Shown one piece after another: positions 14,641 through 37,931 of a stretch of 64,000 nt of DNA (its first letter is position 1; every line of letters begins with the position of its first letter). Location: the NCBI GenBank assembly GCA_045598245.1, contig JAZLLQ010000020.1, positions 13,772 to 77,771 on the forward strand. The letters run 5' to 3'. The position numbers were made by a program, and so were the translations under genes. The notes beneath the pieces were generated by a model that saw only the letters and a list, made by a program, of their open reading frames with translations, made no database searches and was not told the origin of the DNA. The DNA is from Candidatus Gastranaerophilales bacterium (GTDB lineage Bacteria; Cyanobacteriota; Vampirovibrionia; Gastranaerophilales; JAILCC01).

Positions 14641-17256
14641 TTAGTTTATTCCCAACACATCATCAATGAGCCATTTCCAGAAATCTTCAAAAATATTATG
14701 ACCTTCAAAATTCTTATAATCACCGTCATAGTTTTTTCTTATTTCTTGGGCTTTATTCTTAAATGAATTTATTTCGTCATCTGATATTTTTCTAACTGTA
14801 CCACCGCCTGTAATAGTTCCTCCTCGAGGATATTCTGTAACTCCATTATTAACAATAGAATCACCGTCATCACCGCCACCTGTTATACTTGGGACAATAC
14901 CGTTGTTAATAATTTTATCTGTTCCGTTACCACCATTTATGTGTCCCCCAATAACACCATTGTTTGTAATAACATCATCCCCGCCTTCTCCGGCAATAAA
15001 GTTGCTAATAACTCCGGTTGCTTCATTTGTTATTTTATCATTACCTTGATTACCCCAGATAACATTGACATCACCAAAGTTTTGTACGATGTCATCCCCG
15101 TGACCTGCATCAATAGTACCGATACTACCCTTGTTAATCATAGTATCATCACCATTTCCACCGTTGAAAGAATCTGCAATGCCTTTTTCAGTATTAAGCA
15201 TTGTATCATTGCCGTCACCGCCACTGAGATATCCTGTTGTACCGTTGTTTGTGATATTGTCATCACCTTTATCACCGCTAAGATGATTTTCTACTGTGCC
15301 GTTATTTGTAATATTATCGTTGCCATCACCTGCATTAATTTCATATACTTTACCATTATTGATTATAGTATCATTACCGTTACCTGTTCTAATATCATAT
15401 CCGAGAGTACCATTGTTAATAATGGTATCATCACCATCCCAACCGGATACACGATACATTGTTACACCTTCATCAATTACGATAGTATCATTACCGCTTC
15501 CTGCCAATAGCTTAAAATCAGGGTATTTACATTCTTTTATTTCAATATTTAAATCCTCGGAAGTTGAAAAATCTATTGAAGAACATATACCGGTACAGTC
15601 TTCTGATATATATATATTTATTTTTCCAGTTTCCTCAACCACAAGTTTACCTTTAGTATCATGACCTACTTCAAATTTGATTTCTTTGCCGTTAACCATT
15701 ATTGATTTAAGTGAACTGCTTAACTCATACGTTGTTCCCTCAGGTATAACAGGGTCGGGAGTTACCGGAACAACGGGGTCAACAGGGTCAACCGGGTCAA
15801 CTGGATCAATTGGAGTTACTCCTTTTTGTTCAACACCATTTACATAATTTTTACCTTCAAATGTGCCTGTTCCGAGAACACCTTCTTTATAATAAATACC
15901 ATCTTTACCAATACCGGTTAATAAGTTCGTTTTTTTGCTGTCTGTGTATGCTAAGCCGTTTTTGTAAACTACGCCATTTTTTGTACCTGTATACAATTTG
16001 CCCGAATTATAAAATTTGCCGTCATCTTCATTTGCACCGCTTAATTTTGTACCGTCTTTATATGTATAACCGTTATATGTAGCGATGCCGGTAGATTTGT
16101 CACCGTTTACGTATAAAGTGTTGCTGTATAAAACCGTACCTGTTGCTTTTGTACCGTTTACATATAAAGTGTTGTCAAAAACAGTTTTGCCTGTTGATTT
16201 TCTGCCGTTTTCATATAATGTATCTTCAAATACGATATTTCCTGTAGCTTTTTTACCTTCTACATACAGTACATTATCAAATACTTGGTTTCCTGTAGCC
16301 TTATCGCCATTTACATATAAAGTGCTGCTGTAAAGAACTGTGCCGGTTGCTTTTACTCCGTTTGAATATAAGCTGTTGTTATAAACAGTTTTGCCTGTTG
16401 ATTTTCTGCCATTTACATACAATGTATCTTCAAAGACAACGTTCCCTGTTGCTTTTTTACCATCCTGATACAAATAACCTTCATGGACTACACTGCCTTT
16501 TGCGATATCACCGTCAACATATAAAGTGCTGCTGTATACAATTGTACCTGTTGCTTTTGTACCATTTACGTATAAGCAGTTGTTGAATGCTACTTTTCCC
16601 GTTGATTTTCTTCCGTTTGTGTATAAAGTATCTTCAAACAGAACTGTTCCTGTTGCTTTTTTCCCGTCCTTATATAAATAACCGTCATAAGATACATTGC
16701 CTTTAGCAATATCTCCATCTACGTATAAAGTGCTGCTGTAAAGAACTGTACCTTTAGCTTTTTCGCCATTTATATATAGAGTATTTTCATAAACAGCTTT
16801 CCCCGAATGTTTTACACCGTTTCTGTAGTATGTATCTTCATAGACACCTGTACCCAATTTCCCGTCAGCATAATATTTATCGTTAAACATACCTGTATAT
16901 TTTTCTGATTTAACGGATTTCTCTACCGTAGTTTTCATTGATTTCTTTTGATTTGCCATAAATTCTTTTTCTGCATCAGAGATTTTACCGTCACCGTCTA
17001 AATCAACATCGTCAGAAAGCATTAACCAATCGGCAATATTTGTATTGCCGTCACCATTCAAATCAAACGGATTATTTTTTTGGATGTTTTGGATTTCGTT
17101 ATTGATAATCGTTTTGTCTTTAGAATCTATTTTACCGTCACCGTTGGCATCTGCTAATTTCTTTTGCTCTTCTGTTCTTTTAGATGAATTTGTATTATAT
17201 GCCAATAATCTTTGTTGTGAATTAAATAAATTTGATAATTGAGTATAATCAGCCAT
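14641..17256 (-). CDS. Repetitive Ca-binding extracellular protein (EF-hand/dockerin-like loops, 17-aa repeats, RTX-like repeats)
   Basis: DANGDGKID, DLNGDGNTN and DLDGDGKIS loops; about 16 Yx[ND]GxKATG repeats; (DPV)n linker; G[DN]G[DN]Dx[IL]xNxG repeats. Confidence 0.85.
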   Translation of the reverse strand: MADYTQLSNLFNSQQRLLAYNTNSSKRTEEQKKLADANGDGKIDSKDKTIINNEIQNIQKNNPFDLNGDGNTNIADWLMLSDDVDLDGDGKISDAEKEFMANQKKSMKTTVEKSVKSEKYTGMFNDKYYADGKLGTGVYEDTYYRNGVKHSGKAVYENTLYINGEKAKGTVLYSSTLYVDGDIAKGNVSYDGYLYKDGKKATGTVLFEDTLYTNGRKSTGKVAFNNCLYVNGTKATGTIVYSSTLYVDGDIAKGSVVHEGYLYQDGKKATGNVVFEDTLYVNGRKSTGKTVYNNSLYSNGVKATGTVLYSSTLYVNGDKATGNQVFDNVLYVEGKKATGNIVFEDTLYENGRKSTGKTVFDNTLYVNGTKATGTVLYSNTLYVNGDKSTGIATYNGYTYKDGTKLSGANEDDGKFYNSGKLYTGTKNGVVYKNGLAYTDSKKTNLLTGIGKDGIYYKEGVLGTGTFEGKNYVNGVEQKGVTPIDPVDPVDPVDPVVPVTPDPVIPEGTTYELSSSLKSIMVNGKEIKFEVGHDTKGKLVVEETGKINIYISEDCTGICSSIDFSTSEDLNIEIKECKYPDFKLLAGSGNDTIVIDEGVTMYRVSGWDGDDTIINNGTLGYDIRTGNGNDTIINNGKVYEINAGDGNDNITNNGTVENHLSGDKGDDNITNNGTTGYLSGGDGNDTMLNTEKGIADSFNGGNGDDTMINKGSIGTIDAGHGDDIVQNFGDVNVIWGNQGNDKITNEATGVISNFIAGEGGDDVITNNGVIGGHINGGNGTDKIINNGIVPSITGGGDDGDSIVNNGVTEYPRGGTITGGGTVRKISDDEINSFKNKAQEIRKNYDGDYKNFEGHNIFEDFWKWLIDDVLGIN

Positions 17257-17292: not shown

Positions 17293-17319
17293 TTATCGGC
17301 AGATTTTTTTTTAACTTTA
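17293..17319 (-). promoter_or_regulatory. Sigma28 (FliA) promoter
   Basis: Minus strand TAAAGTTA-N11-GCCGATAA. Confidence 0.85.
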
Positions 17320-27155: not shown

Positions 27156-28007
27156 TTAGCTTAATAGTGTTAAAGCTATTGACGGATTTGAATTTGCTTG
27201 ACTTAATAATGCAGCAGAGCTTTGTTGCAAAATTTGGTATTTTGTTAACGCTGCTGCCTCCTTAGCAATATCTGCATCCCTGAGTTCTGATAATGATGCT
27301 GACAAATTTTCTGATTTGATTAATAAACTATCCATTGTTGCATCCAATCTGTTTTGGAATGCACCAATTTTAGATCTGCATTCAGATACCACGTTGATAG
27401 CATCATCTATTGTTTGGATAAAGTCTGAACAAGTTTGTGGGGTTGCAAATGAAGCCTGTAAACCGGTTTCAGAGAAGTTTGCGTTTAATGCAGTTGCACT
27501 CATTTTAATTAATGCGGGACTGATGTCAAGTTGATTTTCCGCACCTGAGTTTGGACCGATTTGTAATACTAAACTGCTTGATCTTGAGCCATCCAAAAGT
27601 GGAATATCTGTAAATTTTGAAACTTGTGATAATCTTGTGATTTCAGCAAAGCGTGCTTGAACTTCTTGTAAAATCATAGTTCTTTCTGATGTAGAATAAG
27701 TTCCGTTTGCTGCTTGAACCGTTAAATCTCTTACTCTTTGCAAGTGTTCTTGAATTGTGTTCATATCACCTTCTGCGGTTTGAAGAAGGTTGATACCATG
27801 TTGGGTGTTCTGTTTTGCAACTTCAGTGCCGTTTACCTGAGATAGCATTTTTTGAGAAATTGCTAGTCCTGCTGCGTCATCTGCTGCGTGGTTAATTTTG
27901 TAACCTGTAGAAAGACGTTCCATTGTTTTGCCGACTGCTGAATTTGCTCTGGTTAAGTTCTTTTGTACAATTAGAGATGGTACGTTAGTGTTTACTACAA
28001 TGCTCAT
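27156..28007 (-). CDS. fliC: Flagellin (minimal, almost no variable domain)
   Basis: VNTN...ERLSTGYKINHAADDAAGLAIS, LQRVRDLTVQAANGT, RSKIGAFQNRL, DADIAKE. Confidence 0.96.
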   Translation of the reverse strand: MSIVVNTNVPSLIVQKNLTRANSAVGKTMERLSTGYKINHAADDAAGLAISQKMLSQVNGTEVAKQNTQHGINLLQTAEGDMNTIQEHLQRVRDLTVQAANGTYSTSERTMILQEVQARFAEITRLSQVSKFTDIPLLDGSRSSSLVLQIGPNSGAENQLDISPALIKMSATALNANFSETGLQASFATPQTCSDFIQTIDDAINVVSECRSKIGAFQNRLDATMDSLLIKSENLSASLSELRDADIAKEAAALTKYQILQQSSAALLSQANSNPSIALTLLS

Positions 28008-28033: not shown

Positions 28034-28057
28034 TATGCGTGGTTCCTTCCACACATA
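28034..28057 (-). promoter_or_regulatory. Candidate CsrA-binding hairpin in the flagellin leader
   Basis: TATGTGTGG-AAGGAA-CCACGCATA, ANGGA in the loop, second GGA in the SD. Confidence 0.65.
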
Positions 28058-28060
28058 GTA

Positions 28061-28087
28061 AAATCGGCACTTTTGGGCTTTTCTTTA
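28061..28087 (-). promoter_or_regulatory. Sigma28 (FliA) promoter
   Basis: TAAAG-N14-GCCGATTT upstream of flagellin. Confidence 0.85.
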
Positions 28088-34343: not shown

Positions 34344-34462
34344 ATTTTAATTCACCTAAATAACTGATACTCCTATATCCTACAAGCAACAGATACATAA
34401 TAAATCATCTTAACAGTTGAAATTTATTGTATTTTTAATTTGCAATTTATTTAAGCTGAATA

Positions 34463-37400
34463 TTATTTCAATAATTGCAATGCTATTTCAGGGATTATGT
34501 TGGCTTGTGCCAATATTGAACTTGTTGCACTTTGCAGAATTTTTTGTCTTGTTAACATTGCAGTTTCGCTTGCGAAATCCGTATCGACTATTGTTGAATG
34601 AGAAGAACTCAGATTTTCAACTTTTGTTTCAAGTGAACCTACAACACTTTCCATGATATTTTGTGTTGTACCGAATTGAGAGCGTACAGACGATAATTTA
34701 TTTATCAATTCATCGGTTTTATCTAATGTTTCTGACGCTTGTTCTCTTGTTGAAACATCAGCGTTATATTCTAAGGCAAATACGGTATCAACCTTTACCC
34801 TGTCATTTTTTGTTCCGTCTGCTCCTATTTGAAATTGGATTGGGTCATGTGGTCTTGGTGTATTTTTTAATTCCGGCGGATTATAGCCGTAAGTGTACAA
34901 ATCGCCTAAAAATTGCAGATTATTACTGTCTTTAAACCATTTAGAGTTATGTCCTTCTACGCCTTCTTCTTCTGTTCTTACGTTCGGTGCTTGTTCAGAG
35001 TTTGAGTAGCAGTTTTCAACATCGCTGTATCTATTGTAAGAGATGAATGCTCCTGTATTTGCACCTTCAGTCGTTACTTTGCCTGAGCTGTAACAGTCAC
35101 TTATATAGCCTATATTGTCAAAACCTACAAACCCTCCTGCATAATCTTTAGCAGATACATTACCTGTTGAATATGATGAAATAATATTGCCCAGATAGTT
35201 TGTACCTACGGCACCACCTGCAATATTACCTTTTGTACTTACATCCCCGAGAGAATAGCTGTTTGAAATTGTAGCTGAATTATAACCTACCAGACCGCCG
35301 GCCCATGCAGTTGAATCTACAGAAGAATTAACATCGCCGGTTGCGAAGCATTCGTTAATAATTGAACCATAATAATTGTAACCTACCAGACCACCTGCAG
35401 AATCACCGGAAGCTGTTATATTCCCTTTAGCATACGAATTAGAAATGTTTGAATTTTTATTTTCTCCGACAAGTCCTCCTATATTCATTTGCCCTGATGT
35501 GTTACCTGTTGCCCTTGATTTTATTACATCCGTACCTTCATTGTAGCCGATGAGTCCACCAACGTCATGTTCTGTTCCTATTACTTCTCCTGATGCGTCA
35601 CAATTTTCGATTATGTTGTTATTTCCTACAGAGTGACCGACTAACCCTCCGACAGCGAGTGTTCCGTTTACTTTACCACATGCGGAAGAATTAGATATGT
35701 CTGATGTGTAGTTCCAGCCTACCAAACCTCCGGTTCTCATGTCAGTTCCTGTAGTTGTACCGTTTGATGTTGAATTTTTAACATTACTGTCAAGAGTGCA
35801 ACCTATAAGACCGCCTGTTATGCCAACTCCTGTTATATTGCCTGTTGCGGATGAATTTTCAATTGTACTTGATTCAACCATGCCAACAAGTCCGCCGCCA
35901 TAATTCCCATTGTTAGTTACGTTACCTGTTGCTGATGAGTTTATAATGGAACTGTTAGAAGTAACATCACCGGACAGTCCTCCGACATAATTTTGTCCGG
36001 CTACATTTCCTGTGGCAATGGAATTACTTATACTGCTGTTATTTGTTATTAATCCGGTAAGTCCTCCGACTGTTGAGCTTTCTGACTGTACATCGCCTGT
36101 TGCTTTTGAATTTGATATTTGTGTATTGTCCGCATAGGCTACAAGTCCTCCCGCACATATAACAGAAGATGATGCTTTACCTGCGGCACTTGAATCGGTT
36201 ATATCTGTATTTAGCGAATATCCGATAAGTCCTCCGCTCCAACTGCCACCGTCAACATTACCTGATGCTGATGAATTAATAATGTTAGAATTTATTGTAG
36301 CACCAATTAGTCCTCCGCTATTATCTCCTGTAGATATTACATTTCCAGATGCTGTTGAATCGGATATACTTCCTTCATTAATGTAGCCGCTTAAACCTCC
36401 GACTTGAGAACTGCCGGTTACATTGCCTGTTGCTGATGAATTTGATACTGTTGTATTGTTATTTATCCATCCGACTAAGCCTCCTGTACATTCTTGACCT
36501 GTAACATTTCCGTTAGCGATACAATTTTCAATTTTGCTGTTGTCGTATGCACTGGCAACAAGGCTTCCTGTGTAGTTTTTTCCGCTTACATTGGCATCTG
36601 ACGTACAGTTTTTGATAGTGCCACCTGTTAAGAAACAAGTTAAACCACCATTTTTGTCCGCAGATGAATTGATATTTCCTGATACATAGCAGTTTTCAAC
36701 AGTACCTGAAACCATATAGCTTAATGCTCCGCATGTTCCGATACTGTTTATACTGACATTTTCAAGAGAGAGGTTTTTGATTGTTCCCGATATATCATGG
36801 AACATTCCGAAATAGTCTTTTCCTTCTATATTTTGGACATTTTTTACAGCATATCCGTTACCGTTGAGTTCTCCTTCAAAATTATACCTTGCCCAACTTT
36901 CCACTTCAGAAAAATCAATATCGCACATTAAGCAGTATTTACCGCTTGTATTTGAAAGTATATTTGCAAAGTCATCCGCATTTTTTATTACACTGTATCC
37001 TTGGGCAATAGCTTCTTCTTCGGTTATGGCTGTTACTTTGTGAAAACCTATATCTCCTGTAGGTCCTGTTTTTCCTGCCGGTCCCATTTCTCCGGCGGGT
37101 CCGAGAGGTTCTATTGAACCTATTTTATTTTCTTTGTCTGTTCCGTTACTTTGAGTAAGCGAATTTGTCAGGCTATTTGTGCTGAATAATAACAATGGGG
37201 TTTCTTCGACAGTGTCTCTAACAAGTTTTTTTACTGCATGCTCATCGTCTCCAAAAATTTTGATATCATTGAATTTTGCTGAATTTTTCTGCCTGTACAT
37301 TTCTTGAACAAGATTTTCAACTTCGGTTTGCAACATGCCTCTTTCTATATCAGAATAAGTATCATTCATTGATTCAAGGCATAATTCCCTGATACGTTGC

Positions 37401-37663
37401 GCCATTGTCTGCATTTCATCTAGTGCGGATTCTGCTGTACCAATAAGGCTTATGCTGTGTTGGACATTATCTATTGCAACATTTGAACCTGAGAGTTTGC
37501 AACTTATTTTTTTAGATATTGATAAATTTGCAGCATCATCCGAGGCATGGTTAATCTTAAAACCGGTTGAAAGTCTTTCTATTGAAGTTTTCACACCGCT
37601 GTTAGCCATTGTTAAATGTCTTTGCGCAACTATTGAACTTATGTTAGTGTTAACTGAAATCAA
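34463..37663 (-). CDS. Giant flagellin with GLUG-repeat insertion
   Basis: Flagellin N-domain (VNTN, ERLSTGFKINHASDDAA) and C-domain (FQIGAD, RSQFG, DTDFASE) flank about 780 aa with many GGL[VI]G repeats. Confidence 0.92.
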   Translation of the reverse strand: MISVNTNISSIVAQRHLTMANSGVKTSIERLSTGFKINHASDDAANLSISKKISCKLSGSNVAIDNVQHSISLIGTAESALDEMQTMAQRIRELCLESMNDTYSDIERGMLQTEVENLVQEMYRQKNSAKFNDIKIFGDDEHAVKKLVRDTVEETPLLLFSTNSLTNSLTQSNGTDKENKIGSIEPLGPAGEMGPAGKTGPTGDIGFHKVTAITEEEAIAQGYSVIKNADDFANILSNTSGKYCLMCDIDFSEVESWARYNFEGELNGNGYAVKNVQNIEGKDYFGMFHDISGTIKNLSLENVSINSIGTCGALSYMVSGTVENCYVSGNINSSADKNGGLTCFLTGGTIKNCTSDANVSGKNYTGSLVASAYDNSKIENCIANGNVTGQECTGGLVGWINNNTTVSNSSATGNVTGSSQVGGLSGYINEGSISDSTASGNVISTGDNSGGLIGATINSNIINSSASGNVDGGSWSGGLIGYSLNTDITDSSAAGKASSSVICAGGLVAYADNTQISNSKATGDVQSESSTVGGLTGLITNNSSISNSIATGNVAGQNYVGGLSGDVTSNSSIINSSATGNVTNNGNYGGGLVGMVESSTIENSSATGNITGVGITGGLIGCTLDSNVKNSTSNGTTTGTDMRTGGLVGWNYTSDISNSSACGKVNGTLAVGGLVGHSVGNNNIIENCDASGEVIGTEHDVGGLIGYNEGTDVIKSRATGNTSGQMNIGGLVGENKNSNISNSYAKGNITASGDSAGGLVGYNYYGSIINECFATGDVNSSVDSTAWAGGLVGYNSATISNSYSLGDVSTKGNIAGGAVGTNYLGNIISSYSTGNVSAKDYAGGFVGFDNIGYISDCYSSGKVTTEGANTGAFISYNRYSDVENCYSNSEQAPNVRTEEEGVEGHNSKWFKDSNNLQFLGDLYTYGYNPPELKNTPRPHDPIQFQIGADGTKNDRVKVDTVFALEYNADVSTREQASETLDKTDELINKLSSVRSQFGTTQNIMESVVGSLETKVENLSSSHSTIVDTDFASETAMLTRQKILQSATSSILAQANIIPEIALQLLK

Positions 37664-37684
37664 ATGTTCATTCCTTTGATATTA

Positions 37685-37707
37685 AGACTGAAATCCTTTT
37701 GCAGTCT
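37685..37707 (-). promoter_or_regulatory. Candidate CsrA-binding hairpin in the second flagellin leader
   Basis: AGACTG-CAAAAGGATTT-CAGTCT, AAGGA in the loop, then AAGGA SD. Confidence 0.55.
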
Positions 37708-37780
37708 GATAATGTGAGTTGATTAATGGAGTTTTACAACTTTTGTTTGTTTAAAACTTTTGTATGGTTGTACATATCTT

Positions 37781-37807
37781 TTATCGGCTCGGTAGGAAAA
37801 AACTTTA
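37781..37807 (-). promoter_or_regulatory. Sigma28 (FliA) promoter
   Basis: Exact extended consensus TAAAGTTT-N11-GCCGATAA. Confidence 0.9.
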
Positions 37808-37931
37808 TACTCCGAACGTAGGATTTTTGTTCTTTAAAATTATTAATTTTGTTTAAAAATTTACAAATTTTTTACAGTACATATTTCTTTTATTTGTTAT
37901 AATGTAGAAAAATTATATAGAAGGAGAAGGT

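Follow-up and report, generated by a model that had tools for sequence, protein, structure and literature searches.

A gene in a Gastranaerophilales genome encodes a flagellin of 1066 amino acids that has, in place of D2/D3 outer domains, a single complete GLUG module consisting of an M26_N-type cap, a stack of rungs and a C-cap. The explanation that we favor, with a probability of about one half, is that this protein would stud the flagellar filament sparsely with rigid rods, which together would act as a non-catalytic surface for binding or adhesion.

The gene and its flagellin core

The window, i.e. the whole stretch of DNA that was analysed, is 64,000 nucleotides long. The host was obtained from faeces, and Gastranaerophilales are gut relatives of cyanobacteria. 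The following features define the gene and the two ends of the protein:

34463..37663, reverse strand: flagellin open reading frame, 1066 aa, TTG start, uninterrupted
37244..37663, reverse strand: N-terminal D0/D1 helices, residues 1-140 (Flagellin_N; AF2 helices 8-33, 44-99 and 105-128)
34463..34831, reverse strand: C-terminal D1/D0 and stop codon, residues 945-1066 (Flagellin_C; AF2 helices 973-1054 and 1058-1065)

No in-frame ATG or GTG lies upstream of the TTG codon in the reading frame, and the start position agrees with an alignment in which the N-terminus (M-ISVNTN) lines up with the starts of other flagellins. The original prediction, made from the DNA alone, was of intact D0/D1 termini, and a single open reading frame does carry both flagellin domains above the Pfam cut-offs: Flagellin_N (PF00669) at residues 4-138 (E 1.9e-30, 106 bits against a cut-off of 26.6) and Flagellin_C (PF00700) at residues 980-1065 (E 5.3e-16, 59 bits against 23). 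The top NCBIfam matches are flagellins, with scores far above that of FlgL, PDB flagellins match the N-terminal region (best E 1e-38), and a PHROGs scan matched the flagellin core only. The protein is a genuine member of the flagellin family.

The core has some peculiarities. In the alignment, usually conserved D1 residues are altered (QNRL to QNIM and SRI to STI), the Arg-to-Ile change being common to 8 of 35 relatives. The protein contains 17 cysteines, two of them in D1, which is unusual for an exported flagellin. It had also been predicted that the TLR5 region (AQRIRELCLES) diverges from that of a short flagellin of 283 aa encoded nearby (LQRVRDLTVQA); both strings are present, but in the alignment their divergence is slight, and both proteins retain the Arg and Leu positions that we take to matter most when TLR5 recognises flagellin.

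Architecture and predicted fold of the insert

The two D1 halves are separated by an insert of about 800 aa, which is composed of these parts:

37028..37243, reverse strand: N-side linker, residues 141-212, predicted disordered (AF2 pLDDT below 50 at 145-198)
37046-37102, reverse strand: G-x-x stretch GPAGEMGPAGKTGPTGDIG, 6 triplets, residues 188-206, within the N-side linker
36770..37027, reverse strand: beta-helix N-terminal cap, Peptidase_M26_N-like, residues 213-298 (Pfam PF05342 and AF2)
34994..36769, reverse strand: about 21-22 GLUG rungs of about 28 aa each, residues 299-890 (Pfam Glug and AF2)
34832..34993, reverse strand: GLUG C-cap (WFKDSNNLQFLG...YGYNPPEL) followed by a short Pro-rich return linker (NTPRPHDP), from the sequence

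The spacer had been called collagen-like. The (GPx)n stretch exists, but a collagen domain was ruled out: there are 6 triplets in a disordered linker (pLDDT <50) and no match to Pfam Collagen (PF01391) at E <= 0.01. Linkers with at least two G-x-x triplets are found in 12 of 35 family members and linkers with at least three in 5 of 35, both of which are rare in shuffles. The match of the cap to PF05342 is marginal (residues 234-329, profile positions 149-250, 28.1 bits against a cut-off of 27.7). Its AF2 pLDDT is mostly 84-96, with a lowest 10-residue block of 75, and its GNG motif (268-270) is kept in 30 of 35 relatives, G268 being invariant.

Pfam Glug (PF07581) scores 219 bits (cut-off 20.5), and 9 stretches are significant on their own. 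We counted 19 clean motifs of the GGL[VI]G type between residues 366 and 871, at intervals of 27-32 aa (mode 28), and 2-3 degenerate rungs upstream of them, in agreement with the roughly twenty repeats expected; the expected length of about 780 aa of repeats was overstated, the rungs spanning about 590 aa (299-890). DNA-level tandem repeats among the rungs were not found at the locus, therefore the rungs are old and diverged, and recent repeat expansion or slippage was ruled out as the source of variation.

AlphaFold modeling (AlphaFold2, AF2), suggested earlier as a check, yielded a beta-solenoid with pLDDT mostly above 90 over residues ~265-890 (mean 82 for the whole protein), a regular pattern of three strands per rung and a small alpha/beta element at 902-919 within the C-cap segment. 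The GLUG region is predicted to be a right-handed parallel beta-helix rod. At 4.8 Å per rung it would be roughly 10 nm long; this length, and likewise how the rod is oriented with respect to D1, is estimated from the rung count alone. The best Foldseek matches of the insert are 3n6z, a Bacteroides "putative IgA1 protease", and then 7uvk, 6xja, 6xjb and 7uvl, which represent the non-catalytic N-domain of streptococcal-type IgA1 proteases.

Given this fold, one may ask whether the beta-helix carries the site of a polysaccharide lyase, hydrolase or peptidase. Proteolytic flagellins exist (PMC7643111), a survey of the AlphaFold database includes a pectate-lyase-like cluster of flagellin outer domains (PMC11532411), and many glycan-cleaving enzymes use right-handed beta-helices. 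However, a motif search of the protein and 34 relatives returned HExxH in none of the 35, and HxxEH was also absent; the insert matches only Glug and the non-catalytic M26_N region and no catalytic family in Pfam or NCBIfam; and the nearest folds are non-catalytic GLUG helices, the 50 Foldseek matches listed including neither a pectate lyase nor a tailspike. An enzymatic flagellin is thus very improbable, and the absence of HExxH and the probable lack of proteolytic function noted from the DNA are consistent with these results. Two specific candidates were ruled out: an M26 IgA1-specific metalloendopeptidase, as HExxH is absent and Peptidase_M26_C has no Pfam match in the protein (the NCBIfam score for ZmpA is 32.8 against a cut-off of 3000), and flagellinolysin (flagella_HEXXH), as there is neither HExxH nor a match to a peptidase family.

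Companion flagellins

The genome encodes six flagellins, three short and three long. The minimal one, whose coexistence with the long protein had been pointed out, is found within the window:

27156-28007, reverse strand: minimal flagellin, 283 aa, with both Flagellin_N and Flagellin_C (Pfam)
28061-28087, reverse strand: sigma-28-like promoter of the 283-aa flagellin (sequence)
28037-28054, reverse strand: GGA-loop hairpin of its leader (RNA fold)

The cargo of the long flagellins is GLUG in two cases (1066 and 874 aa) and LamG/lectin-like in the third (649 aa). Identity of the D0/D1 core is 44-51% in long-long pairs versus 34-44% in long-short pairs, and by core sequence the three long flagellins are assigned to one lineage. 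All three have Pro-rich return linkers: the 874-aa paralogue has the same C-cap motif as the 1066-aa protein and a Pro-rich linker, and the 649-aa flagellin has a poly-Pro linker at the equivalent place. The cargo of this latter protein is a LamG/LNS domain with a concanavalin-like lectin fold, which among the hits listed otherwise occurs only in non-flagellin proteins. Additionally, the genome encodes a pilin-like protein of 3143 aa with GLUG repeats.

Promoter, leader and flagellar machinery

Upstream of the gene we identified the following elements:

37781..37807, reverse strand: sigma-28 (FliA) type promoter TAAAGTTTTTTCCTACCGAGCCGATAA, TAAA-N15-GCCGATAA, exact consensus
37664..37772, reverse strand: 5' leader of about 110 nt with hairpin, Shine-Dalgarno and candidate CsrA sites
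37685-37707, reverse strand: leader hairpin with AAGGA in the loop (RNA fold)
37671-37677, reverse strand: Shine-Dalgarno AAAGGAA with a second GGA (sequence)

The gene thus has a sigma-28 promoter of its own, as had been claimed. The strict pattern TAAAG-N14-GCCGATA[AT] occurs at about 17 genomic sites, including sites upstream of two other flagellin genes, and a looser pattern at 86 sites against 35 in shuffles. A FliA/WhiG sigma factor (TIGR02479, 237.6 bits against a cut-off of 189.6) and FliS (Pfam, 149 bits) are encoded in the genome; both were found by phmmer with Bacillus subtilis queries and confirmed by Pfam/NCBIfam. The GGA sites of the leader are candidate sites for CsrA, the precedent being the hag leader of Bacillus subtilis, and fliW and csrA are both present in the genome. 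Whole-leader folding energy is not significant for the 1066-aa flagellin gene (z -0.76); the leader of the 283-aa flagellin has an identical hairpin-plus-Shine-Dalgarno layout (z -3.5).

These data bear on the possibility that the flagellin termini are nothing but an export signal and a chaperone handle, and that the GLUG rod is released to the medium or the cell surface. FlaC of Campylobacter, a flagellin homologue outside the filament, is a precedent. The changed D1 residues described above would fit such a role, and many Gastranaerophilales keep partial flagellar sets thought to be secretory (preprint 10.64898/2026.04.24.720558). However, neither the D0 nor the D1 segments are truncated and their scores are those of a flagellin rather than FlgL/FlgK, the D1 deviations are also seen in other family members, and this genome is 97% complete and has a full-looking flagellar set, including a flgF-to-flgL-like run of open reading frames judged by eye from N-terminal sequences. 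We regard secretion of the cargo as quite unlikely.

Codon adaptation and presence in a close relative

The gene has a codon adaptation index (CAI) of 0.494, which falls at the 6th percentile, compared with values of 0.651 and 0.636 (90th and 86th percentile) for two short flagellins, the 283-aa one being at the 86th; FlgL has 0.512. Low codon adaptation is common to all three long flagellins. The whole transcription unit is also missing in a close relative:

34426..37920, reverse strand: 3.5-kb indel (promoter, leader and gene), segment missing in relative L020

In L020, whose TopA is 83% identical, ddh is followed by 90 bp and then by a small open reading frame, dprA and topA; the flanks align to window positions 38906-37921 and 34425-33909. 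Neither target-site duplication nor integrase nor inverted repeats were seen at the indel borders, and insertion of a mobile element was ruled out on this ground. Low CAI, the TTG start and the accessory status indirectly support the suggestion that this is a minor flagellin; it is probably a low-abundance, strain-variable subunit, although the low CAI could reflect recent transfer instead of low expression. No RNA run was found to contain the sequence, which is present in one faecal DNA metagenome run only (share 0.06 of sampled words).

The same observations weigh on a purely mechanical role, in which the rods would pack laterally as an outer sheath and yield a stiffer and thicker filament for viscous mucus, with no specific ligand. 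Beta-helices are rigid and pack side-on; giant flagellins make thick filaments, for which a mechanical advantage has been proposed (PMC6248924); outer-domain dimerisation modulates motility in viscous media (PMC8931119); and our own geometric estimate suggests that there would be steric room for a filament made wholly of the 1066-aa subunit if it is at least about 21 nm in diameter. A major structural subunit should nevertheless be conserved and highly expressed, which is at odds with the CAI, the TTG start and the missing gene at the syntenic site of L020. Moreover, the bulk of the filament could be supplied by three short flagellins, two of which have a high CAI, and the lectin-type fold in the sister paralogue points to binding. 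A mechanical function therefore appears doubtful.

Relatives and gene turnover

The closest non-self homologue of the 1066-aa flagellin reaches 37-44% identity, versus 87% for TopA. Fusions of flagellin and GLUG are recurrent: the best 120 matches in metagenomes include about 48 other clusters at 90% identity, the GLUG C-cap is joined to Flagellin_C in about 25 representatives at 50% identity, and flagellin-GLUG open reading frames are present in 7 of 41 Gastranaerophilales genomes, one of which apparently has at least nine paralogues. One example of 1546 aa adjoins two short flagellins. A search of genome contigs for related loci gave nothing but a distant GLUG protein of Sedimentisphaeraceae that is not a flagellin, and none of the flagellin-GLUG matches listed bears a UniRef source label. 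Among the matches listed, GLUG domains are also common in haloarchaea and Planctomycetes; the domain being common in non-host environments, host binding is not implied by its presence.

We also considered whether the N-side linker is a return strap. With some 10 nm between the two ends of the rod, proteins with more rungs should need longer linkers. Linker length and rung number are correlated across 35 relatives (rho 0.61), a value driven by one clade; without it (n=28) rho is 0.35 (p=0.07), and some members have linkers of 7-11 aa.

Fast divergence or turnover, the presence/absence polymorphism and the multiplicity of paralogues would also be expected of a variable coat, in which swappable bulky outer domains mask the conserved D1 from antibodies, TLR5 and flagellotropic phages, with antigenic variation arising through gene turnover within families of paralogues. 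In line with this idea, chickens that lack immunoglobulin harbor more Gastranaerophilales (PMC11512033). On the other hand, the locus showed no sign of a phase-variation switch, an invertible promoter or DNA repeats, little shielding could come from a minor subunit that is sparse, and the TLR5-type residues are retained. We consider such a coat unlikely.

A proposed mechanism

In the favored explanation, that of a filament studded with binding rods, FliA would transcribe the gene late in flagellar assembly, CsrA-FliW may gate the leader, and output would be kept low by the TTG start and poor codon adaptation. The FliS-bound protein would be exported through the flagellar type III channel with its N-terminus leading, and its D0/D1 helices would co-polymerise with the abundant short flagellins. 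The solenoid would then fold outside the cell, one rung after another, and the rod would be held by a flexible 70-aa tether on the N-side and a short Pro-rich stalk on the C-side. Export, co-polymerisation, stoichiometry and binding are all inferred here. Candidate ligands include a host mucus glycoprotein, immunoglobulin, food particles and other cells. Adhesin or glycan binding by the GLUG insert is suggested by analogy only; outside the IgA1 proteases we know of no GLUG domain with a known ligand. The display of a binding module gains support from the sister long flagellin, because its cargo is of the lectin type.

More tentatively, the long flagellins might be a weakly expressed "carrier" lineage, a plug-in scaffold of D0/D1 core and Pro-rich linker for swappable binding modules in Gastranaerophilales and probably other gut bacteria. 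If so, cargo genes come and go among strains, the rotating flagellum becomes a strain-specific, multivalent organelle of adhesion or capture, and, given the pilin-like GLUG protein, both filament systems display GLUG rods. Strain-to-strain turnover of the gene marks a likely site of selection by host or phage. Incorporation of the protein into the filament would show how a large fold passes the 2-nm flagellar channel during export and is nonetheless able to assemble; solenoids fold rung by rung. It would also offer a natural template for engineered flagellar display and suggest how an abundant uncultured lineage of the human and animal gut attaches to mucus, particles or cells.

Comparison with known systems

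Giant flagellins are known from Oceanospirillales (Bermanella marisrubri, Oleibacter marinus; Thomson et al. 2018, PMC6248924). With 1066 aa, the protein described here exceeds their length threshold of 1000 aa and similarly combines normal D0/D1 termini with an enlarged, repeat-containing exposed center and no enzyme domain. However, giant flagellins have an insert of "DE" regions that are duplicated and akin to Pseudomonas-type outer domains; such regions are unlikely here because the GLUG module accounts for all of the insert. Furthermore, a giant flagellin is the sole flagellin and forms the whole thick filament, whereas this one is accompanied by three short flagellins and two further long ones, and it appears to be accessory and weakly expressed. 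Flagellinolysin (Clostridium haemolyticum FlaMP, Hylemonella gracilis; PMC7643111) is comparable in that a foreign domain occupies the flagellin hypervariable region and gives the filament many copies of a function other than motility, but that domain is an HExxH metallopeptidase, while the 1066-aa flagellin has neither HExxH nor a catalytic family match.

The insert itself resembles Gram-positive M26 IgA1 proteases (S. pneumoniae 6XJA/6XJB, G. haemolysans 7UVK) and BACOVA_03286 (3N6Z) in its Glug repeats, M26_N-type cap and predicted fold. In the S. pneumoniae enzyme the N-terminal domain containing the beta-helix binds IgA1 Fab, and the beta-helix gates the active site without being the catalytic part (PMC7695701). 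That beta-helix comprises 270-290 residues (781-1070), compared with 21-22 rungs here. Unlike the IgA1 proteases, the 1066-aa flagellin has no protease domain, G5 domain or LPXTG anchor, and its module is nested in a flagellin and would leave the cell by flagellar type III export instead of Sec.

Modular type IV pilins carry adhesive modules, e.g. PilB and PilC of Streptococcus sanguinis, and likewise represent filament subunits with a bulky binding module. They belong to another filament system and their cargo is C-terminal, in contrast to the cargo nested between carrier halves in this case. Cluster #35 of a survey of flagellin outer domains, "pectate trisaccharide-lyase-like" (Nat Commun 2024, PMC11532411), indicates that right-handed beta-helix outer domains of some flagellins are already on computational record; the survey is based on UniProt/AlphaFold-database entries, and GLUG is not mentioned in the paper. 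In the literature searched we found no paper naming GLUG together with flagellins. Flagellins with functional outer domains such as proteases or thickening domains are well established (PMC7643111, PMC6248924); what is new relative to the searched literature is the predicted 10-nm beta-helix rod in a flagellin and the putative family of carrier flagellins with swappable cargo.

Domain architecture of the GLUG flagellin

The features of the window considered here are:
34463-37663 (-), GLUG flagellin ORF of 1066 codons, TTG start
27156-28007 (-), minimal 283-aa flagellin, present as originally predicted
37781-37807, 28061-28087 and 17293-17319 (-), tight sigma-28 consensus sites, with ~14 more genome-wide
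37685-37707 and 28037-28054 (-), GGA-loop hairpins in the two flagellin leaders
14641-17256, non-flagellar 871-aa ORF, preceded by one of the tight sigma-28 sites

No in-frame ATG or GTG occurs upstream of the TTG as far as the preceding stop, and in alignment the deduced N-terminus (M-ISVNTN) is in line with those of the genome's other flagellins. Pfam matched both Flagellin_N (residues 4-138, E 1.9e-30) and Flagellin_C (residues 980-1065, E 5.3e-16) in this one ORF; the flagellin termini are intact, as the original prediction had held. NCBIfam flagellin models score far above FlgL for this protein, and a PDB sequence search with its full length returned flagellins only. The Pfam Glug repeat scores 219 bits (cut-off 20.5), and residues 234-329 match, just at threshold (28.1 bits vs 27.7), the N-terminal part of M26 IgA1 proteases, which is not catalytic. 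The roughly twenty GGL[VI]G repeats noticed at first reading are represented by 19 clean motifs at residues 366-871, spaced 27-32 residues apart; the ~780 aa once assigned to repeats describes the whole insert between the D1 halves (~780-800 residues), whereas the rungs cover ~590 residues. Cysteine is usually missing from flagellins; this one has 17, two of them in D1 (C55, C95) and many of the others at a recurring 'NC' position of the rungs.

Predicted structure of the insert

We built an AlphaFold2 model on an alignment of 34 relatives with the same architecture (mean pLDDT 82). Its parts are as follows.

Segments of the AlphaFold2 model
Residues 8-128 and 973-1065: long helices of D0/D1; pLDDT 66-90 in most blocks of ten residues, less at the very ends and at ~31-50
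Residues 145-198: disordered N-side linker, including most of the GXY stretch; pLDDT <50
Residues 213-260: small cap; pLDDT 87-95 in most blocks of ten residues, 75 in one
Residues ~265-890: regular solenoid with three strands per rung; pLDDT mostly >90
Residues 902-919: C-cap, a small alpha/beta element; pLDDT 84-90 in most blocks
Ahead of the D1 hairpin: short segment rich in Pro; pLDDT ~60-74

With the beta-helix rise of 4.8 Å per rung, the ~21-22 rungs of the model would give a rod estimated at ~10 nm. Taken together with the data below, the protein is probably a minor, strain-variable subunit that would co-polymerise with the short flagellins and display this predicted rigid rod for binding. 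Of four alternatives, we rank first a rod whose role is mechanical, thickening the filament.

When compared with the PDB by Foldseek, the flagellin core matched flagellins, and the insert matched 3N6Z, listed as a 'putative IgA1 protease' of Bacteroides ovatus, as well as the IgA1 protease N-terminal domains 7UVK, 6XJA, 6XJB and 7UVL; three of these entries were recovered by an insert-only sequence search. In the S. pneumoniae IgA1 protease the N-terminal domain containing the beta-helix touches the Fab of IgA1; the active site, with its catalytic residues elsewhere in the protein, is gated by the helix (PMC7695701). An enzyme is the last of the four alternatives in our estimate, and a motif search confirmed the earlier reading that HExxH is absent from the GLUG flagellin. 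We regard it as secure that the protein belongs to the flagellin family and that its outer domain is a GLUG beta-helix module, complete and non-catalytic.

The linker ahead of the cap had been described as a collagen-like spacer. The GXY stretch (GPAGEMGPAGKTGPTGDIG, residues 188-206) is real and non-random, as none of 500 linker shuffles reproduced its six triplets, but it is short, predicted by AlphaFold2 to be disordered and without a match to Pfam Collagen, and a collagen domain was therefore rejected. The description that fits it best is a periodic Gly-rich tether. In the same linker, 12 of 35 family members have at least two G-x-x triplets and five have at least three. Under the idea of a return strap, tether length was compared with rod length (rho 0.35, p 0.07, one over-represented clade left out).

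The original prediction had also noted divergence in the TLR5 region, to which we give little weight. QRIRELCL differs from QRVRDLTV of the short flagellin at four of eight positions (I, E, C, L vs V, D, T, V), two of them conservatively, and it retains the Arg and Leu positions that we take to be most important for TLR5 recognition.

Paralogs and their cargo

Seven Flagellin_N matches were found in the genome carrying the window (G000; 2.06 Mb, 97% complete): FlgL, three short flagellins (279-286 aa) and three long ones, namely the 1066-aa protein and two encoded outside the window. These two, and the only ORF of the genome with GLUG repeats outside flagellins, are:
G000:C37:21081-23705 (-), 874-aa GLUG flagellin, 14 rungs by motif count
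G000:C40:15338-17287 (+), 649-aa long flagellin with a different insert
G000:C11:118723-128153 (+), pilin-like GLUG ORF, >3143 aa, extending past the contig end

The 874-aa protein has an M26_N-like cap followed by GLUG rungs, and its core is 46% identical to that of the 1066-aa protein. Across the D0/D1 core, long flagellins are 44-51% identical to one another and 34-44% identical to short ones; all three long flagellins have a Pro-rich return segment to D1.

In the insert of the 649-aa flagellin, a segment of ~35 aa occurs twice in almost the same sequence, at a distance of ~45 residues; the insert also holds an all-beta domain of the LamG/concanavalin-like type, and its return linker is a (Pro)10 stretch. 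The domain was modeled confidently as all-beta (pLDDT 75-98), with structural matches to LamG/LNS domains, to a pentraxin and to a putative carbohydrate-binding protein of Bacteroides. It has 351 homologs, often carrying it in tandem (consensus LPxEYQEVEYIESTGTQYIDTG ... FVPCYRKSD ... GLYDLVN), and among the matches listed there was neither a flagellin nor a Pfam family for the domain. As modeled, this cargo has a lectin fold of the concanavalin-like type, well known as a binding module.

The pilin-like ORF combines a prepilin-like N-terminus (KRAFTMQEVLIALSIIGVLALL) with Cys-rich repeats and GLUG repeats, and because both the prepilin-like start and the GLUG repeats are found in one ORF, the rod module may have a second kind of carrier, resembling a type IV pilin.

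Flagellar machinery and regulation

Melainabacteria are flagellated and have several flagellins (PMC3787301). In the present genome the consecutive ORFs before flgL resemble, by eye, flgF, flgG, flgA, flgH, flgI, flgJ, flgM, flgN and flgK in order and N-termini; FliS is encoded, as are a FliA/WhiG sigma factor (TIGR02479, score above cut-off) and an adjacent fliW-csrA pair (G000:C35:56356-56894). The sigma-28 promoter noticed at first reading ahead of the GLUG flagellin is exact (TAAA-N15-GCCGATAA). The strict motif TAAAG-N14-GCCGATA[AT], also written TAAAG(TTT)-N-GCCGATA[AT], has ~17 sites genome-wide as counted from the site list, including one upstream of a short flagellin and one upstream of the 874-aa GLUG flagellin (TAAAG-N14-GCCGATAT); a looser pattern gave 86 matches in the genome vs 35 in shuffles. 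It is secure that the GLUG flagellin is sigma-28-controlled and that the genome has machinery able to export it. FlaC-like secretion without incorporation into the filament is the reading that we place third among the four alternatives.

In Bacillus subtilis hag, the CsrA sites comprise a GGA in a hairpin loop and a GGA in the Shine-Dalgarno sequence. The leaders of the GLUG flagellin and the neighboring short flagellin share this layout, each having a second GGA in its Shine-Dalgarno sequence besides that of the hairpin, and contain candidate CsrA sites. The GGA hairpins and the fliW-csrA pair suggest that this diderm, a relative of cyanobacteria, has a CsrA-FliW-flagellin checkpoint of the Bacillus type.

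Expression level, gene turnover and distribution

Codon adaptation was calculated against EF-Tu, EF-G, DnaK, GAPDH and RpoB/C.

Codon adaptation index (CAI) and genome percentile
Short flagellin, contig C37: 0.651, 90th
Short flagellin, window: 0.636, 86th
Short flagellin, contig C29: 0.556, 36th
874-aa GLUG flagellin: 0.535, 21st
FlgL: 0.512, 10th
649-aa long flagellin: 0.496, 6th
1066-aa GLUG flagellin: 0.494, 6th

The low CAI and TTG start of the 1066-aa protein would fit a low-abundance subunit; the low CAI could alternatively result from recent transfer.

With proteins of 'Candidatus Gastranaerophilales bacterium', the topoisomerase I of the window shares 87% and 75% identity, and a faeces metagenome is the sole sequencing run containing the GLUG flagellin gene. 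In L020, the locus of a close relative (TopA 83% identical), 90 bp separate ddh from the block of small ORF, dprA and topA, vs 3.5 kb in the window, made up of promoter, leader and GLUG flagellin gene; the flagellin beside dprA is also missing in two other relatives. In a search of 5.8 billion proteins, the closest non-self homolog had 37-44% identity. Because of this 3.5-kb presence/absence and the distance of the best homolog, the gene is considered accessory and quick to change. At the locus, neither a mobile-element signature nor a DNA repeat was found that would account for the turnover. Variability of this kind also bears on a variable shield, the second of the four alternatives in our estimate; a strain-variable binding subunit is the reading we prefer.

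Proteins of ~1930 aa with a Pfam SPM domain (PF26745) were observed in relatives (L018:4073-8735, L020:1-1418), within a few kb of a GLUG flagellin in the former and of the ddh-dprA-topA locus in the latter.

Among the best 120 matches, flagellin and Glug domains are combined in ~48 other clusters (600-1850 aa). A query from the C-cap to the C-terminus found 10 proteins at E <= 1e-30 among 1.84 billion representatives, and ~25 span both parts. Flagellins occur in 30 of 41 genomes of the order and GLUG-flagellin ORFs in seven, from two families. One GLUG flagellin, of 1546 aa, is encoded immediately before two short flagellin genes. A genome of another family (G024) has apparently at least nine separate flagellin ORFs of 550-960 aa with GLUG segments on many contigs, which would be a paralog expansion. 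No flagellin match was found in G001, a genome of the same genus (87% complete), or in any of the 11 genomes sampled from one family of the order (f3); flagella seem to have been lost repeatedly within the order.

Comparison with known systems

Our literature search did not find GLUG together with flagellin in the relevant sense. In the part available to us, an AlphaFold-database survey of flagellin outer domains names a cluster (#35) as pectate-lyase-like and says no more about it (PMC11532411); none of the flagellin-GLUG matches found here bears a UniRef label, and these proteins probably lie outside that survey. Two further precedents for the idea are giant flagellins (PMC6248924) and proteolytic flagellins (PMC7643111).
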